The position numbers and the translations under genes are program-made. A DNA stretch of 64,000 nucleotides, from assembly GCA_963707865.1 (NCBI GenBank), contig OY970175.1, positions 822,028 to 886,027 on the forward strand. The letters run 5' to 3'. The first letter of the stretch is position 1. Each line of letters starts with the position of its first letter. Below the pieces are notes generated by a model that was not told the DNA's origin, ran no database searches, and worked only from the letters and a program-made list of their open reading frames with translations. Shown piece after piece: positions 2,081 to 57,398 of the stretch. The DNA is from an uncultured bacterium. Lineage in GTDB: Bacteria; Patescibacteriota; Minisyncoccia; UBA6257; 2-01-FULL-56-20.

Positions 2081-2545
2081 ATGAAAACGAAACTTATCGG
2101 TGCTCTAGCCTTGTTTGCGATCATAACACCGTATCTTGCGTTCGCATGCAATGCACACAGCACTGTGTGGGATCCGAGCATCCTGAAGGGGCCACTTATC
2201 TCGTGCACGGGAGCAGGTACGGCTGGCGGGACGGACAATGCGAATTGTCATGACCTTTGCGATCTCGTCTGCACCGCGGGGAACGTTATCTATTTCGGTA
2301 TCGGCGTTGTGATCTGGATTATCGCGCCGATTATGATTGCGTGGAGTGGGATTATGCTGCTCATCTCGCGCGGAAGTCCAGAAAAGACAAGTGAGGCGCG
2401 CAAAATGATAACGAGTGTCGTCATAGGATTATTCATCGTCCTTTGCGCGTACATCATCGTGTATACATTTACGCATGTTCTTTTTTCCGCGGTCGGCACC
2501 GTACCTATTGGTGGTTTCGGAGGGCCTGCCTGTACCGTCCAATAA
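2081..2545 (+). CDS. T4SS pilin-like (TrbC/VirB2-like) small membrane protein, paralog 1 (Cys-rich N-terminus)
   Basis: Signal peptide, then two TM helices flanking a short loop with RGSPEK. Same architecture as downstream paralogs with the GG(Y/F)xYxxxxGDPEK...K(T)LLYAxIAxxxAL motif. Confidence 0.6.
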   Translation: MKTKLIGALALFAIITPYLAFACNAHSTVWDPSILKGPLISCTGAGTAGGTDNANCHDLCDLVCTAGNVIYFGIGVVIWIIAPIMIAWSGIMLLISRGSPEKTSEARKMITSVVIGLFIVLCAYIIVYTFTHVLFSAVGTVPIGGFGGPACTVQ

Positions 2546-2552
2546 GCAATAG

Positions 2553-3476
2553 ATGAATTCAGTACTGATCAACATTAACTCCAATCTTCCCGGTTCGGCG
2601 CCCGCAACTTCTATCTCCGGCTTCGTTAGCAATTTCTACAGTTTTGCCCTTCTCGTGGCGGGCATTCTTGCCTTCGGTGCGATCGTCTACGGCGGTATCA
2701 AGTATGCGGCGAGTCGCGGCAACCCTTCGGCTGAGAGCGAGGGAAGAAGCTGGATCACCGGCGCGCTCCTTGGGCTTCTCTTGCTCGCCGGCGCGTACGT
2801 CGTTCTCTACACCGTGAATCCGCAGCTCGTTTCGCTCCAGATTGCCGGACTCGCCGTCCTTCCTGCTCCGCCTCCCGCCCCCCCATCTCCGGCCCCCCCG
2901 CCCGCGCCTACAGGCCCGGGGACATGCCCCATACCACAGCTTTCCCCAATCATTGATCCAGTAGCTTTGCAGATGGAAAACGGTTCGTCGTTGCTTTGGT
3001 CTACGGGAGGAAGGGATTCCAATGTTGATAAAAACCTGGCGAAATTACAGTCAGAGTTCCAAAAATTGCAGGCGGTCGTCGGCGCGGCAGGTGGCCGCGC
3101 GGCGCCGAACTCCGCGTATCGCCCCCTCGGATATCAGATGCACCTTTATGAAATTTACCAAGACTCGGAGATGCTCTTTGCGAATCCGGACTATGCCAAT
3201 CGGCCCGAGTGCGCGCAAATCGTGGCCACGCTCAAAGCCGAAGAGAACAAGCACGGAGTCTGCAGAACCTCCAACCCCTGTTTGGTAGCGGCGCCGAGTG
3301 GTTGCGCTCCTCATGTGAGAGGGATTGGCGTAGATATAGGATTGACCGGAGTGACGTACGATTCCATCAATGCGTTGCTGCAGAGCAACAACATTGATCT
3401 GCGATGGCAAGGATTGCCCGGCGACCAAGTGCACTTCAATCTACAGAATCCGCCCTATACCGGTTGCGGAGGTTAA
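2553..3476 (+). CDS. fusion protein: N-terminal T4SS-pilin-like domain + Pro-rich linker + C-terminal peptidase M15 (VanY/LAS-type) peptidoglycan hydrolase domain
   Basis: N-term GGIKYAASRGNPSAE...LLLAGAYVVLY matches the paralog motif. Linker PAPPPAPPSPAPPPAP follows. C-term carries S-AYRPLGYQ (SxYR-like), HVRGIGVD (HxxGxAxD) and DQVHF (D/ExxH), the LAS/M15 zinc peptidase signature. Confidence 0.6.
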   Translation: MNSVLININSNLPGSAPATSISGFVSNFYSFALLVAGILAFGAIVYGGIKYAASRGNPSAESEGRSWITGALLGLLLLAGAYVVLYTVNPQLVSLQIAGLAVLPAPPPAPPSPAPPPAPTGPGTCPIPQLSPIIDPVALQMENGSSLLWSTGGRDSNVDKNLAKLQSEFQKLQAVVGAAGGRAAPNSAYRPLGYQMHLYEIYQDSEMLFANPDYANRPECAQIVATLKAEENKHGVCRTSNPCLVAAPSGCAPHVRGIGVDIGLTGVTYDSINALLQSNNIDLRWQGLPGDQVHFNLQNPPYTGCGG

Positions 3477-3493
3477 AAATTAACAGCAATATT

Positions 3494-4039
3494 ATGAAAA
3501 AAACGATAATCGTGGTGGTATGCATAGCTGCAATTCTTGGCGTTGGCCTCCTTGTGTTTTTCCTTGTTGGTCGCAAAAACGGAGGCCTAACAAATACAAA
3601 CAGCGCTCCTTCCTTGCCGTCTGTTGGAACGACGGGAACGGGGTCGCAGGCGGAGCCACTTGTCGTGAGCGCGCTTCCCACGAACACACCGCAGGGCAAC
3701 ACGCTTGTGCTTCAGGGTGCGAAGGGCGGCGTCACTGTGAACAATTTTTATAAGGATGCAAAAGGATACTGGCAGGAAATGGATGCGGTTGTTCTTGAGA
3801 AGGCGACCGCGTACACCATCTGGTACTACCGCTCCGACAGCAGTTTTGTGATTGATATGGGAGAAGGAGCGACAGGGAGCGATCAAAAAGGAGCGGAAGA
3901 TTCCCTCGCGCAGATGCTCGGCGTGAGCGGGCGCGATTTCTGCAATCTATCAATCTACGCCACCATCGTGGAAGATAAAGTGACGGGCGTGCGGGAGGCT
4001 ACGTCCCTGGATATGTGCCAAGCCGGGGCATTCCAGTAA
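3494..4039 (+). CDS. hypothetical membrane-anchored/secreted protein
   Basis: ATG at 3494 (MKKTIIVVVCIAAILGVGLLVFFLV) gives an N-terminal TM anchor. No recognisable domain. Sits inside the pilin-like array. Confidence 0.5.
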   Translation: MKKTIIVVVCIAAILGVGLLVFFLVGRKNGGLTNTNSAPSLPSVGTTGTGSQAEPLVVSALPTNTPQGNTLVLQGAKGGVTVNNFYKDAKGYWQEMDAVVLEKATAYTIWYYRSDSSFVIDMGEGATGSDQKGAEDSLAQMLGVSGRDFCNLSIYATIVEDKVTGVREATSLDMCQAGAFQ

Positions 4040-4068
4040 CGGCCGCACCGTGCTACGCTGTAGATAAT

Positions 4069-4437
4069 ATGAGGACGGTGGGAAAAATCTTAAGGCGGAT
4101 CGGATACGTAATTGTTTTGACAATTCTCGGTGTTGTTTCGGTCGCTTCTGCGGCCAGTGCCCCCCCCACACTCACGAACCCCTTGGGAAGCAGCTGTAAC
4201 GACCTGACCTGTCCCCTGACCGCCGTCATGAACTTCATTTTCACTATCTCCATTCCTATCTGTGGTATTATTATCCTGATCGGAGGCTTTCAGATGATGA
4301 CAGCGGCGGGGGATCCGGAAAAATTCAGCACCGGGAAGAAAACCATCCTTTATGCGGTCATCGGGTTCGTGGTTGTTCTTCTCGCGGGAAGCGTCGCCAA
4401 GCTCATTCAGAGCATATTGGGCGGCGGGTCAAGCTAA
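4069..4437 (+). CDS. T4SS pilin-like (TrbC/VirB2-like) protein, paralog 3
   Basis: Signal peptide (VSVASAASA), then GGFQMMTAAGDPEKFSTGKKTILYAVIGFVVVLLAG. Confidence 0.65.
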   Translation: MRTVGKILRRIGYVIVLTILGVVSVASAASAPPTLTNPLGSSCNDLTCPLTAVMNFIFTISIPICGIIILIGGFQMMTAAGDPEKFSTGKKTILYAVIGFVVVLLAGSVAKLIQSILGGGSS

Positions 4438-4450
4438 TAATTTATCGGGC

Positions 4451-4816
4451 ATGGAAAAGATAAAAAATTTGACGGTTGGTGCGATCGGTTCACTCACGAC
4501 GTCGCTTATCACGGTTGTGAACGCGGCGCCAGCTCCTACGAACGTCATCACGAGTCCGTCAGATATTACCACTCTCCTCTGCGATGTATTGAACTGGGTC
4601 TATTGGGGGCTCATCGTAGTGGGAATAATAATGTTCCTCATAGGCGGCTACCGCTATGCGACGTCGGCGGGAGATCCCGAAAGCGTCAGTAAGGCGAACA
4701 AAACGCTTCTTTATGCCGCGATCGCGATCGTAATCGCGCTAGTGGCGAGAGGAGTGCCGCTCTTCATAGGAAGCGTCTTCGGTGTACAGGCTTCAAGTTT
4801 GAGCGTGTGCCCGTAA
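4451..4816 (+). CDS. T4SS pilin-like (TrbC/VirB2-like) protein, paralog 4
   Basis: GGYRYATSAGDPESVSKANKTLLYAAIAIVIALVARG with a preceding TM helix (LNWVYWGLIVVGIIMFLI). Confidence 0.7.
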   Translation: MEKIKNLTVGAIGSLTTSLITVVNAAPAPTNVITSPSDITTLLCDVLNWVYWGLIVVGIIMFLIGGYRYATSAGDPESVSKANKTLLYAAIAIVIALVARGVPLFIGSVFGVQASSLSVCP

Positions 4817-4832
4817 TGGTATAATAAAAACG

Positions 4833-5249
4833 ATGGTGAGGAACATGTTTTACAAACTTAATTCGCGGACAGGCCGGATGTTTCTTTCTGGATTACTCGC
4901 AACTTCCTCGTTTTTTGTGGCACAAGTCGCCGGGGCAACGATTACTCTGAATCCACCGAATGACGTAAAGGCTCCTGTGACGACGCTCGCGACGGGCGAC
5001 ATCACTACCCTTTTCTGCGGCATCATTAACTGGGTTTTCTGGGGGCTCATTGTGCTCGCCGTTGTTATGACTTTGGTGGGGGGTTACCAGTACGCGGTGT
5101 CGTCGGGAGATCCGGAAAAGGTTGGCAAAGCAAACAAAACGCTTCTTTATGCCGCGATCGCGGCTGCGGTTGCCATATGCGCGTGGGGAGTTCCCTCGCT
5201 CATTGGCAGTATCTTGGGTGCCGGCACCCTTGGCACGTTTTGCAAATAA
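4833..5249 (+). CDS. T4SS pilin-like (TrbC/VirB2-like) protein, paralog 5
   Basis: GGYQYAVSSGDPEKVGKANKTLLYAAIAAAVAICAWG. Near-identical motif block to its neighbours. Confidence 0.7.
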   Translation: MVRNMFYKLNSRTGRMFLSGLLATSSFFVAQVAGATITLNPPNDVKAPVTTLATGDITTLFCGIINWVFWGLIVLAVVMTLVGGYQYAVSSGDPEKVGKANKTLLYAAIAAAVAICAWGVPSLIGSILGAGTLGTFCK

Positions 5250-5254
5250 GAACA

Positions 5255-5668
5255 ATGAGGAAATTTAAGACAACACCTCTTTTTGCAGCAGTTGGCGCGA
5301 CGATTTTAGCGGCGATGGCTTTTGCGCGGACCGCCGCTGGTCTCGCGGGCCCCCCGACGCCTCCCGGTATGACTGGGTTGCCCGTGAGTCCGGTTCAGGA
5401 TGTTTATAGCGTTGCCAGCATTGCGTGCGGCATCCTTTTGTGGATCTTTTGGCTTCTCATTATGTTTGCCATCATCATGTTTCTTATAGGCGGCTACCGG
5501 TATGCGACCTCGGCGGGTGAGCCAGAAAAAGTGCAGAGTGCGAATAAGACACTTCTTTATGCCGCAATCGCGGTCGTTGTGGCTCTCTGCGCGTGGGGGA
5601 TTCCAACCCTTATAGACAGTTTCCTGGGAGGATTTAACTGGCGGATGCTCGTGAGCATCTGTGGATAG
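5255..5668 (+). CDS. T4SS pilin-like (TrbC/VirB2-like) protein, paralog 6
   Basis: Start MRKFKTTPLFAAVGATILAAMAFA (signal), then GGYRYATSAGEPEKVQSANKTLLYAAIAVVVALCAWG. Confidence 0.7.
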   Translation: MRKFKTTPLFAAVGATILAAMAFARTAAGLAGPPTPPGMTGLPVSPVQDVYSVASIACGILLWIFWLLIMFAIIMFLIGGYRYATSAGEPEKVQSANKTLLYAAIAVVVALCAWGIPTLIDSFLGGFNWRMLVSICG

Positions 5669-5677
5669 CAAGAGAAC

Positions 5678-5706
5678 TTGTCGGTTATCTTGAGACGAGA
5701 TATACT
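5678..5706 (+). promoter_or_regulatory. candidate sigma70-type promoter (TTGTCG, 17-nt spacer, TATACT) for the paralog-7 gene
   Basis: ttgtcg at 5678-5683, 17-nt spacer, tatact at 5701-5706, about 38 nt upstream of the ATG at 5745. Confidence 0.35.
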
Positions 5707-5744
5707 AAAACGGTAACTGGAAAGGTCGAAAACTCTCATTATTC

Positions 5745-6131
5745 ATGAAAACAGTAAAAGAATTTGCGAAGGGACTGGTAGCGCCGGTCCTCGCGCTCGG
5801 ACTTCCGCTTGTGGCATTGGGGCAGTTTCAGGGGCCGGGCGTGACAGCACCCGCGTCGCCGGTTACAGGCATATCGCAGATCTCAGGCACGAACGGTCTC
5901 CTCTGCACGATCATTAACTGGCTGTTTTATTTAATGATCATCTTGGCCATCATCTTCGTTTTCGTCGCAGCGTTCAAGTACTTAACTGCCGCGGGCGATC
6001 CTGAAAAGGTGAAGTCGGCAGGGAGTACGCTGCTTTATGCGGTCATCGCCGTTGTGATCGCGCTCGTCGCGAAGGGCATACCACTGATCATCTCAAGCTT
6101 CCTTGGTGGGACCGTCTTCACCGCGTGCTAG
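5745..6131 (+). CDS. T4SS pilin-like (TrbC/VirB2-like) protein, paralog 7
   Basis: Signal peptide, then AAFKYLTAAGDPEKVKSAGSTLLYAVIAVVIALVAKG. A candidate promoter lies upstream. Confidence 0.7.
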   Translation: MKTVKEFAKGLVAPVLALGLPLVALGQFQGPGVTAPASPVTGISQISGTNGLLCTIINWLFYLMIILAIIFVFVAAFKYLTAAGDPEKVKSAGSTLLYAVIAVVIALVAKGIPLIISSFLGGTVFTAC

Positions 6132-6164: not shown

Positions 6165-6196
6165 TTTTCAAAAGGCCCCCTGCGGGGCCTTTTGGG
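6165..6196 (+). terminator. rho-independent terminator (GGCCCC-loop-GGGGCC + T-run) ending the pilin-like array
   Basis: aaaaggccccctgcggggccttttgggtt. Confidence 0.6.
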
Positions 6197-6347: not shown

Positions 6348-7238
6348 TCATTGGATACGCTGGTACCGAAGCGTTCCAAGGCCCTGCAGGCACTGCTCCC
6401 GCGGCTTGTTATTTAGCCGCTCGTCGTCAAGGTCAGGAGGGTTTACTCCCCAGGGGCCGTACGACACGGTGAACCCCGAAAAGAGAATCCCAAAGTGGCG
6501 GTCGGGCTGGAATGTGACCCAATATTGGCACCACTGCGTCCAGTCGTCCGGCACGACGATGTGCCCCTCCTTACAGAACTCTCCCTTCCCAGAATCGCCC
6601 AGGTCTCCCAAGAGCACGACATCAAAATATTTGATCTTGTCGTGCTTGTGATTGTTGGTTCCATTCGCGTCCTCCTCGTAGAGGTGACGCGAGATGGAGG
6701 TCGGGTCGGGGTTGTAGTTTGGGTAGCCGCCCGCGCTCCAAAGATCGAAACCTGGAGCAAGGCCGAAGCCTTGAGACCGGGCGAACAGAACCGTTATCAA
6801 TATCATGCTGAGTACTAAAACCCTCCGGAACCATTTGTATTGGTTTGCCAAACGGAGGAATATGTACGACAGCACTACGAATATCAACGCAGCCGTCAGT
6901 CTCTGTTTCATTTGAGCTAGGCCTGTAGGCGCGGGAATGATCAGGAGCAGTGCATATGCTCCCGCGGCGAAAACCAACCCAACAACGAATGAGGCCCAGC
7001 GTAGAGTAGGGGTGGTAAGCCCGACGATGATAGTCACTACTGGTTGTCTTGTGAGGACCAGTGTCACGACCACTCCGAAAACCATCGCGAGCCATGGGAG
7101 AGCCTCCGGCATCCAAATTGCCGATGCCAAAATGAGGAGGATGAGGACGAGCCCTATGCGAAGCAGGGCTCGCACAACGAAATTGCCGGACCTCACGAGG
7201 GCCTCCAGAATCCTTCGGACTTCTCTTGCAGTTCCCAT
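6348..7238 (-). CDS. hypothetical polytopic membrane protein with a C-terminal extracytoplasmic domain
   Basis: 296 aa. About 5 hydrophobic helices, then a Cys/Trp-containing C-terminal domain (GEFCKEGH...WTQWCQYW). No family recognised. Confidence 0.5.
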   Translation of the reverse strand: MGTAREVRRILEALVRSGNFVVRALLRIGLVLILLILASAIWMPEALPWLAMVFGVVVTLVLTRQPVVTIIVGLTTPTLRWASFVVGLVFAAGAYALLLIIPAPTGLAQMKQRLTAALIFVVLSYIFLRLANQYKWFRRVLVLSMILITVLFARSQGFGLAPGFDLWSAGGYPNYNPDPTSISRHLYEEDANGTNNHKHDKIKYFDVVLLGDLGDSGKGEFCKEGHIVVPDDWTQWCQYWVTFQPDRHFGILFSGFTVSYGPWGVNPPDLDDERLNNKPREQCLQGLGTLRYQRIQ

Positions 7239-7247
7239 ATTTCCTCC

Positions 7248-7937
7248 TCAGAAGATCAGGCTAAAGAGATCCTTCAACCGTTGGATCCTTCGGCCCTTTC
7301 CTCCCTTTTTCGCCCCGGGCAAACCCTCCGTCCAGTCGGCGATTACTTTCACTCTAGATGCCAAAAGCCTGTCCAACGCCTTCAATTCGGGCTCAATCTC
7401 TTTCCACCCGGCTCGGACATCCTGCTTGAATTTCCTCAGGTCCTCAATCGTGATTTTCCTGGGGGCCGTAGCGGGCTGTTGGGTTTTCTCACGAATGAGA
7501 TCCGCGAGACGGATCCGCAACTGAAGTTCCTTTTTCAGTTGCACGAACACGTCCTTTGCTGCTTTCGTATTCTTGGCTGCCTGGAGCCGCGTGGTGGCGG
7601 ATTTCTGGAAATCTTTGACCCAACTCAGATCGGAAGAGGTCTTCCCCCCTCCCTTACTCTGTTCGCCGATGCTGCGGCCGATGTTCTCCGTGAAGTCGCC
7701 GAGCTTCTCCACTAGCATACCCAGTATCGGTGACTTGACCGGGTCAGTTTTTGACTCGATCCAGCCAGCAAGAGGTCCAAGCATCCTCTCGAAGAGAGGT
7801 GACTTGGCCCAATCTGGAAGGAGAGACGCAACCCAATCTGCTCCCCTTTCCGTCTCTCGGTCGAAAACTTTCGACAGCTCAATCAATAGATTTTTTCGGC
7901 TTTCCTGTTTCGGCGTCGGACCATTCGCGTTCGCCAT
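7248..7937 (-). CDS. hypothetical protein (charged, probably coiled-coil)
   Basis: Preferred start MANANGPT at 7937, preceded by AAGGAGG. Lys/Glu-rich. No family recognised. Confidence 0.45.
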   Translation of the reverse strand: MANANGPTPKQESRKNLLIELSKVFDRETERGADWVASLLPDWAKSPLFERMLGPLAGWIESKTDPVKSPILGMLVEKLGDFTENIGRSIGEQSKGGGKTSSDLSWVKDFQKSATTRLQAAKNTKAAKDVFVQLKKELQLRIRLADLIREKTQQPATAPRKITIEDLRKFKQDVRAGWKEIEPELKALDRLLASRVKVIADWTEGLPGAKKGGKGRRIQRLKDLFSLIF

Positions 7938-8065
7938 ATGAAACCTCCTTAATTGAATTTTCTGGCTCATGCGTGGGTTCGCCCTCGCATGTGCTTCGTA
8001 CATAATAGCATAGAATCTACAATTTGTCAAATATCTTAAATTGTCTTAATATAACAATAGGTTTT

Positions 8066-8146
8066 GCTGGGGTGGCGAAATGGCAAACGCACTGGCTTTA
8101 GGAGCCAGCGCCGCAAGGCTTGTGGGTTCAAGTCCCACCCCCAGCA
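8066..8146 (+). tRNA. tRNA-Leu (anticodon UAG), type II with a 13-nt variable arm
   Basis: Cloverleaf folded by hand. Acceptor gctgggg/ccccagc. Anticodon stem ctggc/gccag with loop tttagga. Variable-arm hairpin gcc-gcaa-ggc. T-arm gtggg-ttcaagt-cccac. Confidence 0.8.
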
Positions 8147-8148
8147 CG

Positions 8149-9084
8149 TTATTTTCTTCTCCTCCCGTGGAAAGCCTGGTGCACTTCGCGGAGGGCTTTG
8201 TTCGTGAGGTGGGTGTAGATCTGTGTGGTTGAAATGTTTGCGTGGCCGAGGAGTTCCTGGACGGAGCGGATGTCGGCGCCGTTCATAAGGAGATCGGTCG
8301 CGTAACAATGCCGAAGCTGGTGCGCATGGACGTGCTTTGCGATGCCGGCTTGCCGCGCGCGCGCGGAGACGAGTCGCTGCACGGCGCGCGGCGTTACGCG
8401 CCCAATCACTTTTCCGGATTTATTCAAGCTTACAAAAAGCGCCTCATCCGCGTCGCTGCGTTTTGCAAGATATTTTTGAATAGCGTCGCGCGCAGAATCG
8501 GAGACGAAAACGACGCGCAGCTTGTCGCCTTTACCGCGCACGGTGACCTCGCCGCGTTTCAGATCCAAGTAGCGGCTTAAGGAGCATAGTTCGGCTAACC
8601 GCAGGCCCGTAGAGAAGAACGTTTCCAGGATCGCTTTGTCACGAAGCGAGCGGAGGTCGTTGCCTTTGGGCGCAGCGAGCAAACGCTCCAGGTCGCCGTA
8701 TTCAAGTACTTCTATTTGCCGCGACGGCGTTTTGGGAAGCTCTATTTTTTCCGCCGCGAGCGTTTTCACGTCGCGCCTTGCCAAATATTTTAAAAAGTTC
8801 CGGAGCGCGATCACATAATAGCTTTGTGTGACCTTTTTGATCGCCGCGCCGTCACTCCCGCGCTCGCGGCGGGCGAGCGCGAGACGGAATTCGCGCACCG
8901 CGTCGTCCGTGATGTCCGCCGGCCTCCGCACTTTGGAAAATTTCAGGAACTCGTTCAGATAATGTTCGTAATTTTCCCGCGTCTTCGGCGAGCGGTTCTT
9001 TTCTATCTCAAGATAGTTCAAATAATCCCTAAGCAACTTTTCAATTTCGGTCACGGCTTTATTATACCCCCTCGTGTCGCACAA
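8149..9084 (-). CDS. tyrosine recombinase / integrase (XerC/XerD-like)
   Basis: 311 aa. N-terminal core-binding domain (LRDYLNYLEIEKNRSPKTRENYEHYL). C-terminal catalytic motifs ...R...HQLRHCYATDLLMNGADIRSVQELLGHANISTTQIYTHL (R-H-R-Y). Stop codon is 3 nt from the tRNA-Leu 3' end. Confidence 0.8.
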   Translation of the reverse strand: MCDTRGYNKAVTEIEKLLRDYLNYLEIEKNRSPKTRENYEHYLNEFLKFSKVRRPADITDDAVREFRLALARRERGSDGAAIKKVTQSYYVIALRNFLKYLARRDVKTLAAEKIELPKTPSRQIEVLEYGDLERLLAAPKGNDLRSLRDKAILETFFSTGLRLAELCSLSRYLDLKRGEVTVRGKGDKLRVVFVSDSARDAIQKYLAKRSDADEALFVSLNKSGKVIGRVTPRAVQRLVSARARQAGIAKHVHAHQLRHCYATDLLMNGADIRSVQELLGHANISTTQIYTHLTNKALREVHQAFHGRRRK

Positions 9085-9133: not shown

Positions 9134-11425
9134 ATGAGCCAGGAATCCACCAGCGGAACAATCCCTACGCCCGCGGAAGAGCCAAAAAAGGAAGCAGGGG
9201 AAGTACGGCCGCGATATAAAATAGTAGCTGGCTCCGAGGAAGAGCCATCTATCCGCTTGCTGGGGTTTTCGGAGGGAGCAACAGAGACGCCGGCGGAGCG
9301 CGCAGCGCGCGAAGCAGAAGAAAAACTGGAAAAGGATCTTACGACTGCCCGCGACGAGTATGCAAAAATAAGCCGTGAATTCAAGAAATCTGGCAATGGA
9401 GACAAGAAGGCGCTGGAGGAGGCGCAGAAAAAGTATTCTGAGGCACGGAGGGATGAGCTTGAACACAGGCTGGGATTTTTTGAAGAGACGTTTGACGAAG
9501 AAGTTAAGCGTGGCACATTCAAGGCAGAAGACAGGAAAAAAGAAATTGCGAGATTTACCAAGTTTGGTTTGGTGAATGAATTCAAGCAGCTCTACGACGC
9601 AAAAACGAATCTGGAGATCGCCGAGAAAAAAGAAACCATTGCGAACAGGATCGGCAAAGCGGCATACCGGGCTTTTGATTGGTATCGGAAGCTCCCGGCT
9701 TGGAAAAAGGTTACTGCAGGTGTTGCGCTTATGGGGGTTGGTTGGGCCGGCGGCGCAACTGCGGTGGTAGCCGCATCCGTTGCGGGCGCAAGCACGGCCA
9801 TGAGACTGATGGGCTCGGGAGGTATGACGCTCACCATAGAAGCCCTCTTGAAGAAAAGGGATGAAAGGAAGCTTGCGAGAGAGATCGGTAAGGCACTTAA
9901 TGTTGGGGAAGGGGTTGATACGGCGCTCCAAAGTGCACGGGAAGGGAAAACCGCAGCGGCGCTGACCGAATTTTTGAAAGCAAACGATGCGCAATTATTG
10001 GACCGTTATGCGGACAACGAAGAAATATTCAGAAAGAGGGAGGGGGCATTAAGAAAGAGAAGGTGGTTAATCTCTGCCGCGGGAGGTGCGGCGATGTTCG
10101 CGGGCGGGTTGGCCCTTAGCAAGCTTATACATGGCTCTGGCGGGCATGGGGCGACGACTGGGCATGCGCCCGGATCCGCCGCGGGCGCTCCGAAAGTGGA
10201 AGTGGTCATAGGAGACCAAGTGGAGATGAAGGACACCGTTTGGAATTCCTGCAGAATCTTGCTGAACCAGCAAGGGATTGCGCACCCGACGCCGAGTGAG
10301 ATTATGCAGGTTGCAGAGCAGGTAGCGAAGGATAATCATGTCGGCGTGGCTCCGTGGAACATCCCTGGGAGTTCACTGGATGTTGCCATGAAACAAGGGG
10401 AGCATCTCAAGCTGACAAAGATGGTAGGTGGGCTTGTGAAGGAAATTGTTGCGAAGCATGCTGGGGCGCCATCACACGGAGTCCATGCACTTGGCAACGA
10501 AGTCGTGCCGCATCCCGCACACGAAGTCTCGTCGATACCTCCGTCGCCGCATGCGCCTGATGTTCCTATTTCTCATCCCGCAGAAGCAACCGCGCATGTG
10601 AGCGGCGAATCTGCCGCCGCCAATGTTCCGCACGTCCACGAAGCCGCATCACCGGCGGCCCCACTGGCAGGAGATCAGGGTTGGCATCACTTCAGCCATC
10701 AGCAGGGAGAACATCCATTCACTGGAACGCACGGAAAGGTACCTGCACCACCCGCGCCGGACGCGGCCGCGAACGCGCAAATGAATACCGTGGATAATTT
10801 TTTCAGCGTGCCGCATTCGCTTCAGGATGAGATTGGGTTCTTGAATTCACATGCGCATGATTTCAGCCACGAAGCGTTGGGAAGAGCCAGGGACGCCGTA
10901 TTCAACGATCAGAGCTTTGATTTTTCGCGCCGATACAATTTTCTAGAGCAACAGGAAGCCCTCACAAGGATGCACGAAATCGTTGCAAAGGCCACCGACC
11001 CTTCACTCCGGGATTGGTACCAGGGAATGGCGAATGCCTTGGAGCACGGTGCTGCCTACCAACACTCCGAAGGGGTTTTTCGGGAAATGCTTGGCCGCGC
11101 CGGCATGAACGCCAAAGAGTACGGTGACGTGAAAAACATGACGGTTGGCAAATTCCTTGGGCACCACCGATGGCACAGCATAGCCGACTGGTTCAAATCC
11201 CCCTATGCCGTGGCTGACCCCACGCATCCGCAGACGTACGTATACCGAGGATGGGGGGGCGTCCGGGCCACGACCGTTCCTGGGGCTACTCCGGAAAGAA
11301 TCTATCATTCCAGATTACTTGCGGAAGAAATGCGGCAGTGGTTTTTGACCAGGGCTTCCTCCACCGATTACAAAAACCTTACCGTGGACGAATGCCTGAA
11401 GACGATGATCGGGCCAGAATCGTAG
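9134..11425 (+). CDS. large hypothetical membrane protein (coiled-coil N-term, two hydrophobic segments, His-rich region, C-terminal globular domain)
   Basis: 763 aa. Charged coiled-coil N-terminus. Gly/Ala-rich TM segments (VALMGVGWAGGATAVVAASVAGA; LISAAGGAAMFAGGLAL). His-rich stretch (HPAHEV...HVHEA...WHHFSHQQGEHPF). No family recognised. Confidence 0.5.
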   Translation: MSQESTSGTIPTPAEEPKKEAGEVRPRYKIVAGSEEEPSIRLLGFSEGATETPAERAAREAEEKLEKDLTTARDEYAKISREFKKSGNGDKKALEEAQKKYSEARRDELEHRLGFFEETFDEEVKRGTFKAEDRKKEIARFTKFGLVNEFKQLYDAKTNLEIAEKKETIANRIGKAAYRAFDWYRKLPAWKKVTAGVALMGVGWAGGATAVVAASVAGASTAMRLMGSGGMTLTIEALLKKRDERKLAREIGKALNVGEGVDTALQSAREGKTAAALTEFLKANDAQLLDRYADNEEIFRKREGALRKRRWLISAAGGAAMFAGGLALSKLIHGSGGHGATTGHAPGSAAGAPKVEVVIGDQVEMKDTVWNSCRILLNQQGIAHPTPSEIMQVAEQVAKDNHVGVAPWNIPGSSLDVAMKQGEHLKLTKMVGGLVKEIVAKHAGAPSHGVHALGNEVVPHPAHEVSSIPPSPHAPDVPISHPAEATAHVSGESAAANVPHVHEAASPAAPLAGDQGWHHFSHQQGEHPFTGTHGKVPAPPAPDAAANAQMNTVDNFFSVPHSLQDEIGFLNSHAHDFSHEALGRARDAVFNDQSFDFSRRYNFLEQQEALTRMHEIVAKATDPSLRDWYQGMANALEHGAAYQHSEGVFREMLGRAGMNAKEYGDVKNMTVGKFLGHHRWHSIADWFKSPYAVADPTHPQTYVYRGWGGVRATTVPGATPERIYHSRLLAEEMRQWFLTRASSTDYKNLTVDECLKTMIGPES

Positions 11426-17917: not shown

Positions 17918-20080
17918 TTACGAAAGCCGCTCTTCTATTTTTTCCAGATTGACGTCGCGTGGCTTCGCGCCATCGCCGGGACCGATGAGGTCGGCGGCCT
18001 CCATGAGATCCAAAAGCCGCGCGGCACGGGCATAGCCGACTTTCAGGCGGCGCTGCAGAAGCGACGCCGAGGCCTTCTTGGCTTCTACCACGATCGCGAT
18101 GGCCTCGTCAAAAAGTTCGTCGGTGTCCTCGTCCTCAAGATATTCGTCAAAGTTTTGCGGCGCAGAAATGCCGGCGGCCATACCGTTCATGCCGCTGCCG
18201 TTCACACCCCCGTTTTCAAAATTCACTTTCTCGTTTTCGTCCGCCATCGGGGCGTTGTGATCGCGGATAAAGCTCGCCACGTTCTTGATCTCGTCTTCCG
18301 TGATGTAGGTACCCTGGATGCGCTTCGGCTTGGAGAGTTCAGCGGATACGAAAAGCAAGTCCCCGTTGCCAAGGAGTTTCTCCGCGCCGCCCGTATCTAA
18401 AATAGTGCGCGAGTCAATCTGCGACGCTACTTGAAGCGCTACGCGTGCGGTGATATTCGCCTTGATGAGTCCCGTGATGATCTCCACCGACGGCCGCTGT
18501 GTGGCGAGCAGAAGATGAATACCCGTCGCGCGCGCCATCTGCGCCAGGCGCACGATGGAACCCTCCACTTCGCGGCCGTAAGAGGTCATGAGGTCCGCCA
18601 TCTCGTCTACCACAATCAAAATGTAGGACAGTGCCTCGTCGCGGTGGCTCGCGTTGTAGCTCTTCGTATCGCGGCTACCGGCTTTTTGGAGAAGCTCATA
18701 GCGCCGCTCCATTTCGGCGATCGCCCAGCGGAAAACGCTAACCGCCTTTTTGTTTTCGGTGATCACGGGGCTTACGAGATGGGGGATACCTTCATAGACG
18801 GAAAGCTCCACGCGTTTCGGGTCAATAAGGATAAGTTTCAAGGTCTGCGGCGAGTTTTTATATAAAAGGGAAACAATGAGCGAGTGCATAAGGATTGATT
18901 TTCCCGAGCCGGTCGCGCCCGCGACGAGCATATGCGGCATCTTTTCAATATTCGTGAAGACTGGCTCGCCCGAAACGTCGCGGCCGAGGATGAATCCGAG
19001 CAGCCCCGATTGATTGAACTCGGGATAATTCATCAAACTGCCGAGGCGGACGAGCGCGGCTGCTTTGTTCGGCACCTCAATGCCCACGAGCGATTTCCCC
19101 GGGATCGGCGCTTCAATACGGATAGGATGCGCAGCCAATGCGAGCGCAAGATCGGAGGAGAGCGCTGTGATGCGCGAGAGTTTCATCCCCTCGGCCGGCT
19201 TCAGGGTGTAGCGCGTGACCGCCGGACCCACATTGATCTCCCCCATTTCCACCGAAATGCCGAAACTTTCAAGCGTGCGCTTTATAATGTTCGCATTCGC
19301 GAGAAGATCACCCGTCGTCGGTTTCCCCACCTCGGCCTTGAGGAGCGAAAGCGGTGGCGGGATATAGTTCGCGAAAACCGGTGCTTTCAACTTTTTTGTG
19401 CTCGCGGGCTTCATCATGGACCTTGGCCCCACGACCGTCGGTTTCATCTCCTCTTCGTCTTCGTCGGGTTCTTCCTCAATATTTTCCATTCCTTTTTTTC
19501 CATGATTCTTGCCTTTCTCGTCACCCGTTCCAGTCACAGGGAGGTCCTCTTCTTCAGGCGCCTTTCCCAGCCATTTGATTTTGATTGGCACGTTCGCCGT
19601 CACAAGTATTGAAATGATAAAGATAAAACCGTCAATAATAGTGGCCGCGGTTTTGCCGAAAGGGTAGCGGAGTGATCCGAGTACGAGCCCAAGCCAGCCA
19701 CCCTTCGTGGGGGAGAATATTTCAATGAGGCCGAGGAACGAAAAGATGAGAAGGCCAGCTCCCACGAGTGTCGTGCCCACGATCTTCTTTCGCCCGGAGG
19801 CCAAGAGCACGACTGCGGCGAAGGCAAGCGTTACGGGGAGGACGAAATACCCCCAGCCGAAGAGCGCGTCCAGGCCTTGGTACGTCGCGCCGCCCGCGGG
19901 CCCCGCCGCGCCAAACCCCGCGAGCGTGAGGATTACTGCAATGCAAAGAAAGCCAACCCCCCAGATGCTTTTCTTCGTATCCGGGTGCAAGCGGTGGTCC
20001 GAAAAATTCTCCCGCGCGTTGCCGCCGCCACGGACGTCGCCGTTCTTCTTGTACTCGCCGTTCCCGTTCCTTTTCGCCAT
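17918..20080 (-). CDS. ftsK: DNA translocase FtsK/SpoIIIE
   Basis: N-terminal TM helices. Motor domain PHMLVAGATGSGKSILMHSLIVSLL (Walker A) ...LILIDPKRVEL... VVDEMADLM (Walker B). C-terminal gamma-like domain. Confidence 0.9.
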   Translation of the reverse strand: MAKRNGNGEYKKNGDVRGGGNARENFSDHRLHPDTKKSIWGVGFLCIAVILTLAGFGAAGPAGGATYQGLDALFGWGYFVLPVTLAFAAVVLLASGRKKIVGTTLVGAGLLIFSFLGLIEIFSPTKGGWLGLVLGSLRYPFGKTAATIIDGFIFIISILVTANVPIKIKWLGKAPEEEDLPVTGTGDEKGKNHGKKGMENIEEEPDEDEEEMKPTVVGPRSMMKPASTKKLKAPVFANYIPPPLSLLKAEVGKPTTGDLLANANIIKRTLESFGISVEMGEINVGPAVTRYTLKPAEGMKLSRITALSSDLALALAAHPIRIEAPIPGKSLVGIEVPNKAAALVRLGSLMNYPEFNQSGLLGFILGRDVSGEPVFTNIEKMPHMLVAGATGSGKSILMHSLIVSLLYKNSPQTLKLILIDPKRVELSVYEGIPHLVSPVITENKKAVSVFRWAIAEMERRYELLQKAGSRDTKSYNASHRDEALSYILIVVDEMADLMTSYGREVEGSIVRLAQMARATGIHLLLATQRPSVEIITGLIKANITARVALQVASQIDSRTILDTGGAEKLLGNGDLLFVSAELSKPKRIQGTYITEDEIKNVASFIRDHNAPMADENEKVNFENGGVNGSGMNGMAAGISAPQNFDEYLEDEDTDELFDEAIAIVVEAKKASASLLQRRLKVGYARAARLLDLMEAADLIGPGDGAKPRDVNLEKIEERLS

Positions 20081-30847: not shown

Positions 30848-32119
30848 ATGACTAAAACAAGACTCGTTGTCATTTGCCTTGTCGGGGTACTCGTTCCTTT
30901 GAGTGGAGCATTTGCCACGGCGTCAACCTCATCGGAGGTGAGTAGCACGTTGAGCGCCCCCACGCTTTCCCCTATGCTTCCCAACGGCACGCTCGTCGTC
31001 CCGCCGTCGGCGTCTTTCGCATCCGGCGATTATCATTCCTCGCTTAGCGTAACCCTTACCGCAGCCGGCTCGCATGCCATCTATTACACACTGAATGGCA
31101 CGGGGGATCCGGTATGCGCTACGGGGACGGCGTATACAAGCGCGCTCACGATCAATAGTGCGACGACATTGAAAGCCGTCGCCTGCTACAGCGACGATAA
31201 CAGCGTTTCTTCGACGATCGCCCCCTATGCCTACACCTTTAGCTGCAGTCCGGCGACGGTTTCCAATGGATCGTTTTCTTCGTATTCCTCCGGTTGTTTA
31301 ATCAGCTGTTATTCTGGTTATACGCCGAGCGGCGGATCGTGTGTAGCTTCCGGTAGTAGTGGCAGCGGAGGCAGCGGGGGCGGCGGGGGTTCGTACAGCA
31401 ATCCCTATACCATTACGATCAACGGCGGCGCGACGACGACTGCTTCGGCGAACGTCACCCTTGTGCTCACCTCGCTCGGGGGGATGAACTGGGTGTGGAT
31501 TTCAAATGATCCGAGCTTCGCCACGTCAACGGGAACCGGCTGGATTCCATTCCAGGCGACCTATCCATGGACGTTGGCCTCGGGACCGGGAAATAAGACC
31601 GTCTATGCAGAATTCGGGAGCGCAAGCAATACGGTGGCCTTTGCGGGATCCGCCCAGGCCAGCATAACGGTTGTGGGCGGTGGCACTGGCGGGACAACCG
31701 GTAGCGGCGGTAGCGGCGGAACATCGGGAACATCGCGCGCGTCGCAACTACAGCTTCTTAATATGCTCATTGCGGAGCTTCGGCTCCTTCTCCAACAGGC
31801 GTTGGCACAAGGAATAACGCTTCCGCCGGGCGTGGCCGCGTATCTCAATGCGGGATCCGCGACATCAACGCTTTCGGCCATAACGCGTGACCTTACTATC
31901 GGCTCAATCGGCACGGACGTGAGCGCTCTCCAGGCGTTTCTCATCTTGCAGAACAAAGGCCCCGCCGCTAGTGCTTTGGCTGCGGTTGGTGCCACCGGGC
32001 ACTTTGGATTGCTCACCCAGGCAGCGCTTGCGGAGTATCAGGCGGCGGTGGAGATTACGCCCCCCACGGGATACTTCGGTCCTCGTACGAGAGCGTATTT
32101 GCAGAGCATAGGATACTAG
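30848..32119 (+). CDS. secreted protein with chitobiase-C-like N-terminal module, Gly/Ser linkers and C-terminal peptidoglycan-binding domain (PG_binding_1)
   Basis: Signal peptide. AIYYTLNGTGDP (CHB_HEX_C-like). C-term DLTIGSIGTDVSALQAFL...GHFGLLTQAALAEYQAAVEITPPTGYFGPRTRAYL matches the PG_binding_1 pattern. Confidence 0.55.
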   Translation: MTKTRLVVICLVGVLVPLSGAFATASTSSEVSSTLSAPTLSPMLPNGTLVVPPSASFASGDYHSSLSVTLTAAGSHAIYYTLNGTGDPVCATGTAYTSALTINSATTLKAVACYSDDNSVSSTIAPYAYTFSCSPATVSNGSFSSYSSGCLISCYSGYTPSGGSCVASGSSGSGGSGGGGGSYSNPYTITINGGATTTASANVTLVLTSLGGMNWVWISNDPSFATSTGTGWIPFQATYPWTLASGPGNKTVYAEFGSASNTVAFAGSAQASITVVGGGTGGTTGSGGSGGTSGTSRASQLQLLNMLIAELRLLLQQALAQGITLPPGVAAYLNAGSATSTLSAITRDLTIGSIGTDVSALQAFLILQNKGPAASALAAVGATGHFGLLTQAALAEYQAAVEITPPTGYFGPRTRAYLQSIGY

Positions 32120-51037: not shown

Positions 51038-51078
51038 GGTATGATAATAGGAATTGGCAGATTAAAAACAGGTTAACA

Positions 51079-52134: not shown

Positions 52135-52147
52135 AGCAATTATTATC

Positions 52148-52705: not shown

Positions 52706-52717
52706 CGCACTCACGCC

Positions 52718-53347: not shown

Positions 53348-53352
53348 CGCCC

Positions 53353-53655: not shown

Positions 53656-53745
53656 CGCGCGCATAGCAGTTTTATTGGACGAGGTATCCAGCCGTAGTTT
53701 TGCCTAACGAAGCTACGGCTGGATGAATGTGCTAAAATACAAACA

Positions 53746-57396: not shown

Positions 57397-57398
57397 TA

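Follow-up and report, generated by a model that had tools for sequence, protein, structure and literature searches.

Tandem arrays of VirB2-like pilin genes are already published for the Patescibacteria: 441 arrays are reported from 383 assemblies, together with an array in TM7x (PMC12102498, PMC10633639, PMC12857230). In Southlakia epibionticum ML1, an essential series of six pilins lies within the T4SS locus (PMC10633639, PMC12857230). Pili built from these proteins have never been observed in a Patescibacterium, and reviews treat them as a possibility (PMC12857230). The array described here, from a patescibacterium (Minisyncoccia/Paceibacteria) with a genome of about 0.9 Mb, is of the kind already described for the phylum. 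Like the published arrays, it belongs to PF18895, lies on the chromosome, and consists of strongly diverged tandem paralogs with a non-pilin gene among them; likewise, the genome encodes a monoderm-type T4SS, and a relaxase or coupling protein is not seen in the vicinity. It differs from them in lying outside the T4SS locus, about 45 kb away in the closest, syntenic relative. The published arrays are most abundant in Microgenomatia and Saccharimonadia, whereas the present host belongs to another class. Core identity among four of its paralogs (48-65%) extends beyond the quoted maximum of 54%, which is possibly a full-length figure. It also contains a hairpin/peptidase fusion with a conserved partner gene, undescribed in the three reports (PMC12102498, PMC10633639, PMC12857230), and a replaced cassette that is an observation added to the known patescibacterial pilin arrays.

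More distant systems offer partial parallels. The pilins of diderm conjugation systems (Ti VirB2, RP4 TrbC, F TraA) and the archaeal CedA1-type pilins have the same long signal peptide, small mature protein, and two hydrophobic helices connected by a short charged loop, and VirB2 also has a Cys right ahead of helix 1 (..NNICTFI..). However, they share no significant sequence similarity with the array proteins (TrbC Pfam, hhalign against VirB2), and in place of evidence for head-to-tail cyclisation there is a conserved terminal Cys pair. The host here is a monoderm, unlike those of the diderm pilins, and has seven paralogs rather than one gene. The Mbov_0395 and MMCAP2_0565 proteins of mycoplasma ICEs (NF045849) provide the best NCBIfam match, yet below cut-off, and the element here is chromosomal and without ICE features. 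Bartonella and Anaplasma likewise encode several adjacent VirB2-type genes with differing exposed parts, but they are an unrelated lineage with another T4SS class, whereas the paralogs here are ancient, orthologous across species, and without sign of inter-copy recombination.

The array spans positions 2081-6131 of the window, the whole 64-kb stretch of DNA that was analyzed, running exactly from the ATG of g1 to the stop codon of g8 (Table 1). The first-pass annotation had listed seven consecutive paralogs; seven genes of PF18895 type are present, but the run contains eight co-directional genes, and g3 is not a pilin. The PF18895 (Pfam T4SS_pilin) two-helix hairpin scores above the curated cut-off of 26.6 bits in six of the eight genes and 0.3 bits below it in g2, whose orthologs reach 29.5-46.1 bits. 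A profile of the hairpin core matches exactly the seven array ORFs of the window and zero others. Since this profile picks those ORFs only and the same gene order is kept in other genomes, the array is far beyond chance.

Table 1. Features of the array and its surroundings in the window
Feature	Position	Strand	Description
g1	2081-2545	+	154 aa; PF18895 29.6 bits
g2	2553-3476	+	307 aa; PF18895 26.3 bits
g3	3494-4039	+	181 aa; without pilin domain
g4	4069-4437	+	122 aa; PF18895 47.5 bits
g5	4451-4816	+	121 aa; PF18895 39.5 bits
g6	4833 or 4845-5249	+	138 or 134 aa; PF18895 38.6 bits
g7	5255-5668	+	137 aa; PF18895 43.7 bits
g8	5745-6131	+	128 aa; PF18895 37.1 bits
Replaced cassette	2880-4160	+	g2 linker and catalytic domain, g3, 5' end of g4
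Promoter-like site	5678-5706		9/12 consensus positions, a weak consensus match only
Likely operon terminator	6170-6193		A-tract, GC-rich hairpin, T-tract: AAAAGGCCCC-CTGC-GGGGCCTTTT; read from sequence
ORF convergent with g8	6348-7238	-	
tRNA-Leu	8066-8147		
Tyrosine recombinase	8149-9084		XerC/D domain layout
Type IV pilus operon	50923-59881		PilM, PilN, PilB, PilT, PilC, PilD
Four prepilin-type genes	58654-61338		

The earlier assignment to T4SS-pilin-like proteins of TrbC/VirB2 type stands in its first half. Membership of the TrbC/VirB2 Pfam family does not follow, the top score being 25.8 bits (g4) against a cut-off of 27.9. NF045849 (Mbov_0395) is the top NCBIfam match of all six small pilins (E 1e-9 to 2e-5), with scores of 24-38 bits that all lie below its 40-bit cut-off. 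Neither hhalign profile comparison with Agrobacterium VirB2 nor PDB sequence searches yield a match. With the TrbC Pfam and Mbov_0395 NCBIfam scores below cut-off, the sequences do not demonstrate a relation to pilins characterised by experiment, and the array is classed, by its PF18895 domain, as encoding T4SS-pilin-like proteins.

Hydropathy, from which signal peptides and topology were called, shows that g1 and g4-g8 start with a signal-peptide-like stretch and then have two strongly hydrophobic segments. The common architecture claimed for all seven genes thus applies to these six; g2 has no signal peptide and is extended by 210 residues at its C-terminus. The combination of signal peptide and two-helix hairpin is the topology of conjugative pilins and not of type IV pilins, as the first-pass annotation had it, and the g2 hairpin as modelled by AlphaFold is in keeping with it. 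The quoted signature GG(Y/F)xY..AGDPEK..K(T/S)LLYA is present in g5-g8 and loosely in g4 but fails in g1 and g2. Nor is the membrane core near-identical, as had been stated: hairpin-core identity ranges over 18-65% across the array (48-65% within g5-g8, 39-43% between these and g4, 18-36% for g1 and g2). g1 has a Cys-rich exposed segment, the hairpin loop SRGSPEK and a C-terminal Cys, and is 74-77% identical to its orthologs in the related genomes L001 and L003. The most conserved member is g4, with a core 95% identical to that of L001 and a dN of about 0 to L003; it has a CxxxxC pair ahead of helix 1 and no C-terminal Cys. In g5, Cys44 and Cys120 flank the hairpin. Alignment with orthologs suggests that the true start of g6 is the downstream ATG, giving the shorter protein.

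The exception among the pilin-type genes is g2. Its hairpin at residues ~20-93 is joined by a Pro-rich linker at ~96-124 to a LAS/M15 (VanY-like) zinc peptidase domain at ~125-307 (Pfam VanY, E=0.0014), in which SxYRP, HxxGxxxD and DxxH are invariant among 19 homologs. The AF2 model (pLDDT 83) renders the hairpin as two long helices, 21-53 and 58-88 (pLDDT 85-91). In Foldseek, the C-terminal domain matches Ply500, VanX, VanY and LdcB, with the phage endolysin Ply500 best, and the hairpin weakly matches the Aeropyrum pernix conjugation pilin 8dfu (E=3, probability 0.75, TM 0.61 on the target), its sole membrane-hairpin match in the PDB. Contrary to the reading of all seven proteins as pilin subunits, g2 is therefore a predicted membrane-anchored peptidoglycan peptidase. 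Pilin-type hairpins also anchor at least seven other families of C-terminal domains, and in relatives the anchored catalytic module is a lysozyme/SLT-like domain. Such modules are likewise found in PrgK (pCF10), TraG (pIP501), CwlT (ICEBs1) and TcpG (pCW3), which share with g2 an N-terminal membrane anchor, an extracellular wall-degrading domain and an association with T4SS components. g2 differs from these hydrolases in its anchor, where a T4SS_pilin hairpin takes the place of the single helix, and in a catalytic domain exchangeable between close relatives; its M15/LAS peptidase is not typical of VirB1-type proteins.

The protein encoded by the partner gene g3 has an N-terminal transmembrane helix, which a linker connects to an alpha/beta ectodomain of ~120 aa; Cys150 and Cys175 of this ectodomain are conserved. 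The protein has zero Pfam hits and no NCBIfam match above a curated cut-off, and its AF2 model (pLDDT 88) finds no fold match in the PDB; 287 relatives are found at E<=1e-3 among 1.84 billion representatives. g3 recurs directly downstream of pilin-anchored hydrolases and occupies the same position in L001, L003, L006, L009, L012, L013, L015, L016 and L017. The order pilin, anchored hydrolase, g3, pilins is also seen in unrelated metagenome contigs.

Named relatives of the host are Minisyncoccia or Paceibacterota. The array holds the same position in three related genomes (L001, L003/L004 and L006), within the kept order GyrA, SBP, pilin, fusion, g3, 4-5 pilins, Xer, S15, NYN and PNPase. This conservation is interrupted by a cassette of ~1.25 kb: its flanks share 70-95% of their nucleotides with L003 and L001, and over ~2900-4150 identity falls to 38-52%, the background level. 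Protein comparisons likewise find the cassette completely unlike the same stretch in the closest relatives. The enzyme part of g2 has thus been swapped, along with g3, between close relatives.

As had been noted before, the window encodes no VirB4, VirB6 or VirD4 homologue among its 39 largest ORFs by Pfam, smaller ORFs having been read by eye; a VirB4 is missing from the window because it is located outside it. The candidate, P0163 (579 aa), shares 97% identity with the syntenic relative's VirB4 and, by record match rather than contig reading, would lie on the same contig as the array. In that relative, PrgI/VirB3, a TrsD-like protein, VirB4 and one more T4SS_pilin gene adjoin dnaA. The relative's VirB4 matches NF045971 (388 bits, cut-off 325) and also the mycoplasma ICE VirB4 model NF045975 (292 bits). 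On a different Paceibacteria contig, VirB4 is followed three genes later by a g2-type pilin. The array is not adjacent to VirB4, and its predicted tie to a T4SS comes from the co-occurrence of these families in other genomes.

Probably, the VirB2-like pilin paralogs of this locus form a vertically inherited operon on the chromosome that is functionally part of a monoderm-type (MPF-FATA-like) T4SS encoded elsewhere, next to dnaA. g1 and g4-g8 would be exported by Sec and lose their signal peptide; to judge from the topology, they would then form a membrane hairpin with both termini outside (N-out/C-out), its short charged loop (A/S)G(D/E)PEK facing the cytoplasm. By analogy with VirB2, TraA and CedA1 pili, a VirB4-driven machine may extract these subunits and stack them into a pilus-like tube or stalk, with the Pro-rich N-terminal segment and the C-terminal tail outside and the loop lining the lumen. 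The conserved Cys before helix 1 and that at the extreme C-terminus probably join the external ends. Since each paralog is retained as a 1:1 ortholog under purifying selection, a division of labour, for example among major, minor and alternative subunits, is most likely, and the paralogs would not be antigenic variants that can stand in for one another. g2, given its fold and active-site residues, would use the same kind of hairpin to anchor an extracellular M15/LAS peptidoglycan peptidase, a local analogue of the Gram-positive T4SS wall-opening hydrolases VirB1, PrgK, TraG and CwlT, with g3 as its constant and presumably functional membrane-anchored partner. The whole apparatus may serve host-cell contact or exchange, if Southlakia epibionticum, in which T4SS and pilin array are essential, is a guide.

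The proteins could instead be small membrane-resident hairpins that never polymerise; they would be subunits of a channel, stalk or scaffold, or would generically anchor an envelope complex, and "pilin" would be a family name only. The hairpin is indeed a mere anchor in g2 and in the other fusion families, resemblance to solved pilins is weak, pili are normally absent from Gram-positive-type T4SSs (PMC12102498, PMC10633639), and a patescibacterial T4SS pilus has never been imaged (PMC12857230). This reading is nevertheless rather unlikely: six genes keep the pilin design of a cleavable signal peptide and a bare minimal hairpin, a simple anchor hardly justifies seven conserved paralogs, the family co-localises with VirB3 and VirB4, and mycoplasma ICEs supply the nearest curated family, named "pilin-like conjugal transfer protein", albeit with scores below its cut-off. 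What remains of a prophage or mobile element integrated near a tRNA-Leu and an integrase, with the two-TM proteins as holins and the M15 enzyme as endolysin, is hardly credible as a reading of the region, even though Ply500 is the best structural match of that enzyme, a tRNA-Leu and a tyrosine recombinase lie 2 kb downstream, and the stretch from the array to these genes varies among relatives. None of the eight proteins has a match among the PHROG holin and endolysin families, other phage genes are absent, GC content does not deviate, and the family is tied to VirB4 elsewhere; the array and the recombinase (93-98% identical across relatives) are syntenic and vertically inherited.

The remaining alternative, raised for such arrays in PMC12102498 and proposed for Bartonella and Anaplasma VirB2 arrays, is antigenic or host-range variation, in which the paralogs are alternative surface variants under diversifying selection. 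Their N-terminal parts do diverge (13-44% identity), as the first-pass annotation had seen, and the array adjoins the swapped cassette. In pairwise comparisons of 1:1 orthologs from three genomes, the exposed ends (N-terminal segments and C-terminal tails) have a dN 3-10 times that of the core, and in a few cases dN/dS comes close to 1 or passes it (g5 2.08, g7 0.92, g8 0.96, g8 tail 2.06). However, the values above 1 come from 9-18 codons and most exposed-part values are 0.1-0.8, so the diversifying selection once proposed is not demonstrated. N-terminal segments give 0.12-0.96, apart from the g5 value on 18 codons, and the core 0.00-0.17, similar to the 0.08-0.15 of housekeeping genes; the fast exposed ends are equally compatible with relaxed constraint and with selection. 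Every paralog has its own 1:1 ortholog in the three genomes, in preserved order, and the set is therefore old and stable rather than a rapidly turning-over variation cassette. A DNA identity of only 57-68% between paralogs, with saturated synonymous sites, likewise shows that no recent duplication or gene conversion took place. Variation of this kind is accordingly very unlikely, and an operon of T4SS pilin paralogs with separate roles is preferred.

Within this presumed operon, g8 is preceded by a 76-bp gap that contains the promoter-like site. The likely terminator lies between g8 and the convergent ORF; a simple terminator scan left it unlisted, probably by a rule that counts T after the full stem. 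The window also encodes the separate type IV pilus operon that had been reported earlier, along with four prepilin-type genes.

A tandem array of pilin-like genes occupies positions 2081-6131, where eight co-directional genes on the forward strand (g1 to g8) follow one another at spacings of 7-29 bp, save for one 76-bp gap before g8 that contains a weak promoter-like match. The starts of g3, g4, g5 and g7 were set by ortholog match, the longest mechanical ORFs opening further upstream. Downstream of g8, an A-tract, a GC hairpin and a T-tract precede a convergent gene. The first-pass annotation had described seven consecutive genes of the T4SS-pilin (TrbC/VirB2) type. The array is real but was imprecisely described: the interval holds eight genes, seven of which match the Pfam T4SS_pilin family (PF18895).

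Judged by the PF18895 gathering threshold of 26.6 bits, the family assignment is correct, with the six small proteins above the threshold and g2 just under it; orthologs and homologs of g2 score 29.5-46.1 bits. Assignment to TrbC/VirB2 (PF04956) did not hold. The threshold of 27.9 bits is reached by none of the proteins (g4 25.8 bits, E 1.3e-5; g5 19.7; g1 12.2; no match for the others), and hhalign of a 25-sequence profile against the verified VirB2 of A. tumefaciens aligned merely 5 columns. The closest NCBIfam model for the six small pilins is NF045849, the Mbov_0395 pilin-like conjugal transfer protein of a mycoplasma ICE, whose cut-off of 40 bits is missed by all six (24.4-37.9 bits), g2 giving no match. 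In the PDB, sequence searches starting from the array profile, from a core profile of 25 sequences and from the database protein P0025 returned linker or designed-protein noise only. A hairpin-core profile run over the whole 64 kb window recovered exactly seven ORFs, all array members; g3 lacks a pilin domain and matches nothing in Pfam.

Positions of the array genes and of other features discussed in the text (window coordinates unless a comparison locus, L number, is named)
Feature	Position	Strand	Length	PF18895 (bits)
g1	2081-2545	+	154 aa	29.6
g2	2553-3476	+	307 aa	26.3
g3	3494-4039	+	181 aa	
g4	4069-4437	+	122 aa	47.5
g5	4451-4816	+	121 aa	39.5
g6	4833-5249, start probably 4845	+	138 or 134 aa	38.6
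g7	5255-5668	+	137 aa	43.7
g8	5745-6131	+	128 aa	37.1
Replaced segment, vs closest relatives	2880-4160; L001 10300-11650; L003 10300-11500		~1.25 kb	
Promoter-like match, g7-g8 gap	5678-5706			
A-tract, GC hairpin, T-tract	6170-6193			
Two ORFs, no Pfam match	6348-8030	-	296 + 260 aa	
tRNA-Leu	8066-8147			
Xer-type recombinase	8149-9084			
ORF with charged N-terminus	9134-11425	+	763 aa	
FtsK	17918-20080			
Giant Big_12/PKD-like protein	23986-30825	+	2,279 aa	
Three PG_binding_1 proteins	30848-32119; 39537-43022; 48567-49412			
g4 ortholog with insert	L001 11496-12299 (also L002 2056-2892)		267 aa (L001)	
g2-type hairpin pilin inside VirB4 cluster	L008 13414-13767; L007 10001-10627			
Lineage VirB4	L008 10001-11731			
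Reverse-transcriptase fragment and bAvd gene	L005 16733-18417			

The exact window proteins are found on a single NCBI/ENA contig of 898,885 bp, and named relatives belong to Minisyncoccia or Candidatus Paceibacterota (Patescibacteria/CPR). The window is ordinary chromosome, with genes for the GyrA C-terminus, a solute-binding protein, a XerC/D-type recombinase, tRNA-Leu, PNPase, RecA, FtsK, ClpB and LigA; the separate type IV pilus operon that had been noticed there is complete (PilM, N, B, T, C, D and four prepilin-type genes). Three other genomes have a common order of GyrA, solute-binding protein, pilin, hairpin-fusion, g3-like gene, small pilins, Xer, S15, NYN and PNPase. These are L001 (OY970382.1, MAG uncultured bacterium isolate MFD03726.bin.c.5, 887,956 bp), the closest genome found, L003/L004 (GCA_049997875.1, a Minisyncoccia bacterium) and the more distant L006 (GCA_964456235.1). 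Five small pilins follow g3 in L001 and L003, and four in L006. From this comparison, the array is ancestral and stable.

VirB2-type pilins are small proteins with a cleavable signal peptide and two hydrophobic helices joined by a short polar or charged loop. The first reading had expected this pattern throughout, and hydropathy predicts it for g1 and g4-g8. In these proteins, a signal-peptide-like hydrophobic stretch at the N-terminus, ending at AxA-type sites, is followed by a Pro-rich segment of ~18-40 residues, two hydrophobic helices (two segments with KD above 1.9) and a short tail; the inter-helix loop reads (A/S)G(D/E)PEK, or SRGSPEK in g1. g2 has no signal peptide. Its hairpin begins after 22 residues, carries the loop SRGNPSAESEG, and leads through a proline-rich linker into a 180-residue domain. 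AlphaFold models the g2 hairpin as helix-loop-helix at pLDDT 85-91. Its only membrane-hairpin match in the PDB by Foldseek is the conjugation pilus of Aeropyrum pernix (8dfu; E=3, prob 0.75, TM 0.61 on target, 72 columns), a weak match; short helical hairpins yield weak statistics.

Cysteines distinguish the hairpin types. g1, g5, g6, g7 and g8, together with orthologs, across four genomes, have one Cys directly before helix 1 and one 0-8 residues from the C-terminus (for instance Cys44/Cys120 in g5 and Cys54/Cys128 in g8; orthologs in L001, L003 and L006). Both positions are expected on the outer face, so a disulfide tying the two ends of the hairpin as an external staple is plausible. VirB2 and TrbC undergo head-to-tail cyclisation, whereas a terminal disulfide in the array pilins would be a different solution. 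The g4 type has CxxxxC ahead of helix 1 and no terminal Cys, and g2-type hairpins have no Cys. A lipoprotein reading of g1 was rejected: its LAFA-C sequence recalls a lipobox, yet this Cys is missing in both orthologs. The g4 ortholog of L001 is more than twice as long as window g4 and has a Ser/Thr-rich extracellular domain of ~145 residues inserted after the signal peptide and before a hairpin that is 95% identical; the cargo of a pilin-type hairpin can thus be N-terminal as well as C-terminal.

The membrane core had been called near-identical among the paralogs, which is incorrect. For the hairpin core, identity is 48-65% within g5-g8, 39-43% between g4 and g5-g8, and 18-36% where g1 or g2 is compared; the N-terminal parts share 13-44%. 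The nucleotide sequences of the g5-g8 cores agree at 57-68%, with saturated synonymous sites (pS 0.5-0.85), and the paralogs are old duplications. This saturation makes the originally proposed dN/dS comparison among paralogs uninformative, and orthologs from three close genomes, with a usable dS of ~0.3-0.9, were compared in its place. Every paralog of the window pairs with a single clear ortholog (71-87% identity, 95% for the g4 core), with cross-paralog values of 23-70%; flanking housekeeping proteins are 85-98% identical to their counterparts. Housekeeping genes gave dN 0.03-0.07 and dN/dS 0.08-0.15, pilin hairpin cores dN 0.00-0.10 and dN/dS 0.00-0.17, and mature exposed N-terminal segments dN 0.08-0.59 and dN/dS 0.12-0.96, with one value of 2.08 on 18 codons; for the C-terminal tails, of 6-16 codons, dN/dS was 0-2.1. 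The exposed ends of the pilins do evolve several times faster, as had been suggested, but diversifying selection is unproven and relaxed constraint fits the data too.

The C-terminal domain of g2 was assessed for LAS/M15 membership by a Zn-binding H-x6-D with a distal H, the substrate-carboxylate motif SxYR and the LAS fold. Among 19 full-length g2 homologs (34-56% identity), SxYRP, HxxGxxxD and DxxH are invariant, and g2 itself carries S187-x-Y189-R190-P191, H254-x2-G257-x3-D261 and D291-x2-H294. The AlphaFold model of g2 has a pLDDT of 83 overall and above 90 in the catalytic domain, which Foldseek matched to Ply500 (2vo9, E 1.2e-3) and also to VanX, VanY and LdcB, all four at prob 0.95-1.0, with LysB4 as a further structural match. 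Ply500 is a Listeria phage endolysin acting as an L-Ala-D-Glu peptidase. On the Pfam side, g2 scores 18.9 bits on VanY vs a cut-off of 25, and its homolog P0010 lies above it at 28.7. Motifs and model together place the domain in the LAS/peptidase M15 group (VanY, LdcB, Ply500) as a predicted enzyme.

This domain is one of several found on the same anchor. Across 98 proteins that share a g2-type hairpin (49-82% identity), at least seven unrelated C-terminal domain families with several members each occur, beside many Cys-rich singletons. The M15/VanY-like and SLT_3 lysozyme-like families are Pfam-confirmed. The other labels come from motifs read in the sequences, not from a family search: three Cys-rich families, of which two or more show LAS-like H..G..D motifs, one family with a possible CHAP/NlpC-like motif, and one Cys-rich family with no recognisable catalytic motif.

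A replacement of this kind separates the window from its closest relatives. The g2 ortholog of L001 and L003 has a hairpin 71-81% identical to that of g2 and an unrelated C-terminal domain, which contains ..NKESGGG..GLWQINV.. and is a member of the SLT_3-containing cluster. For g3, identity is 28-33% between the window and L001/L003, and 91% between L001 and L003. Along the alignment, nucleotide identity is 70-95% on both flanks and falls to a background of 38-52% over ~2900-4150, a stretch that runs from the g2 linker through its catalytic domain and g3 into the signal-peptide part of g4. Background-level identity between conserved flanks indicates that this segment was replaced by recombination, leaving the M15 domain with one g3 variant in the window vs an SLT/lysozyme-like domain with the other g3 variant in the relatives.

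The second gene of the segment, g3, encodes a protein for which a word-indexed search gave a single homolog and an exhaustive phmmer search 287, mostly of 150-200 aa. Its AlphaFold model (pLDDT 88) comprises a transmembrane helix, a linker and an alpha/beta ectodomain with two invariant Cys, and has no match among solved structures. A g3 relative lies directly downstream of the hairpin-hydrolase fusion in every locus with visible neighbours (L001, L003, L006, L009, L012, L013, L015, L016 and L017), and small pilins come after it wherever the contig goes on, that of L015 stopping after g3. Identity to window g3 is 39-50% where the upstream enzyme is of the M15 type (L009, L012 and L013) and 28-33% with other enzyme types, the phylogenetically closest genomes being in the low group. 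One database protein, P0243 (246 aa), fuses a partial Peptidase_M23 domain, at 26.6 bits vs a cut-off of 28.7, to a g3 domain; this single example may serve as a 'Rosetta stone' that connects the g3 family with peptidoglycan hydrolases. The constant place of g3 after the hairpin-hydrolase, an identity that tracks enzyme type and the P0243 fusion make g3 appear tied to the hydrolase. Another protein, P0227, was set aside as a g3 repeat protein: 44 'repeats' match g3, but its sequence is that of an acidic low-complexity repeat protein.

The earlier statement that no VirB4, VirB6 or VirD4 gene is present in the window agrees with a Pfam scan of its 39 largest ORFs. Two candidates were rejected. 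The 763-aa ORF, considered as a hidden VirB4, has no Walker A (P-loop) in the translation read and no Pfam match, and FtsK, considered as a coupling protein, carries full FtsK alpha and gamma domains. The suggestion to look for a VirB4 elsewhere on the contig led to one that probably lies there. In L007, another Paceibacteria contig, the g2-type pilin P0071 lies three genes downstream of PrgI, a TraC-like protein and VirB4, beside dnaA. A search with this VirB4 retrieved the VirB4s of all three syntenic relatives as well as P0163 (579 aa). Its contig agrees with that of the window's proteins both in length (898,885 bp) and in its sources, NCBI and ENA, and we infer that P0163 lies on the window's own contig; VirB4 and mating-pair-formation genes would then belong to the same genome. 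With the VirB4 of OY970382.1, P0163 shares 97% identity, which matches the genome-wide similarity level.

The T4SS cluster of OY970382.1 starts with unknown proteins of 661, 778 and 360 aa, followed by PrgI/VirB3, a TrsD-like protein and VirB4 (388 bits on NF045971, the CD1110 family, vs a cut-off of 325), and then by 295- and 243-aa proteins, a 117-aa T4SS_pilin and a 411-aa protein. It lies at ~795-817 kb, adjoining yidC, rnpA, dnaA and dnaN, and the array at ~851-855 kb is roughly 45 kb away. By synteny, the T4SS cluster of the window genome should lie ~45 kb left of the window. The pilin inside the VirB4 clusters of OY970382.1 (L008) and L007 has a g2-type hairpin with no signal peptide, no Cys and TxNPQ after helix 2, unlike the small secreted g4-g8 type, and the two hairpin subtypes seem to have different genomic homes. 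The nearest curated relatives of the pilins and of the lineage VirB4 are mycoplasma ICE families (Mbov_0395 pilin-like and Mbov_0397 VirB4), the VirB4 also being near the Clostridioides CD1110 family. These affinities hint that the pilin-like gene arrived with the monoderm-type T4SS and not as a loan from a diderm system.

Patescibacteria account for a large part of bacterial diversity, and most of them live attached to other microbial cells; to our knowledge, only one species is genetically tractable. In Southlakia epibionticum, both the T4SS and its run of predicted pilins proved essential (Wang et al., 2023; PMC10633639). Quinonero-Coronel et al. (2025) searched 3,035 Patescibacteria genomes with PF04956 and PF18895 and defined an array as at least two such genes, in tandem or with one non-pilin between, in a Patescibacteria genome with VirB4 (PMC12102498). 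The published arrays have a mean identity of 25% and a maximum of 54%, pilin genes lie away from virB4 in a large minority of assemblies, and T4SS clusters are often beside dnaA (PMC12102498). With seven PF18895 genes, one interloper, Minisyncoccia/Paceibacterota relatives and, given the placement of P0163, a VirB4 in the genome, the present array fits the published definition and is another instance of a known phenomenon. It adds a well-resolved Paceibacteria-type example; the array alone leaves current understanding unchanged.

Other explanations differ in how well they fit. The hairpins may hold a non-polymerising membrane role, which is made more plausible by g2, where the hairpin serves as an anchor. 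VirB2-type pilins in general polymerise, together with phospholipid, into an extracellular pilus that depends on VirB4; in no Patescibacterium has such a pilus been demonstrated, and a 2025 review called it an 'intriguing possibility' (PMC12857230). An antigenic-variation system is disfavoured by the dN/dS values and by 1:1 orthology, which argues against a fast-turnover variation cassette. The pilin set, being old, stable and orthologous across species, points instead to subunits that divide the labour. A phage holin/endolysin remnant is likewise disfavoured: none of the eight proteins has a PHROG match with known function, GC content is normal, and chromosomal synteny is conserved among housekeeping neighbours.

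The most useful new lead is the swappable module of hydrolase and g3 inside the array. The g2/g3 pair could explain wall passage by a system said to lack VirB1. The literature searched contains no description of pilin-hairpin/hydrolase fusions, of their exchangeable catalytic domains or of the conserved g3 partner, and no paper on the Pfam family PF18896/SLT_3 came up; since Pfam includes both the T4SS_pilin and SLT_3 families, their co-occurrence is at least implicit in databases. A speculative and rather improbable reading is that the g2 catalytic domain and g3 form a horizontally exchangeable polymorphic 'warhead', a pilin-mounted hydrolase presented by the T4SS to breach the host wall, with g3 as its matched partner. 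The T4SS would display the hydrolase at the pilus or contact site, and g3 would be a specificity factor, regulator or self-protection protein. If so, swapping M15, SLT-like, other LAS-like and CHAP-like modules would retune the host cell walls that an epibiont can open, and pilin-anchored hydrolases would be both the 'missing VirB1' of Patescibacterial T4SSs and a host-range determinant.

Other features were noted in the window and on the comparison contigs. The two reverse-strand ORFs at its 3' side adjoin tRNA-Leu and the Xer-type recombinase, and gene content between array and recombinase/tRNA varies (326 + 222 aa in L001; 149 + 430 aa and an AbiEii-like gene in L003), a small variable islet beside the conserved array. 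The 763-aa protein, with a charged coiled-coil-like N-terminus, 2-3 hydrophobic segments and a His/Pro-rich middle, has a 581-aa protein at its position in L001 and nothing there in L003. The giant protein matches Big_12, PKD-like and DUF7356, has an unusually high GC in its central part (0.62-0.68 at 26-30 kb vs ~0.54 elsewhere) and is a probable surface adhesin. PG_binding_1 occurs in each of three secreted or large proteins, of which one also has He_PIG/PKD and one, of 1,161 aa, lacks any further recognisable domain; this suggests a rich set of wall-associated surface proteins. On L005, an unrelated Patescibacteria contig, a reverse-transcriptase fragment adjoins a bAvd gene ~6 kb from a lone g2-type hairpin protein; reverse transcriptase and bAvd are hallmarks of a diversity-generating retroelement.
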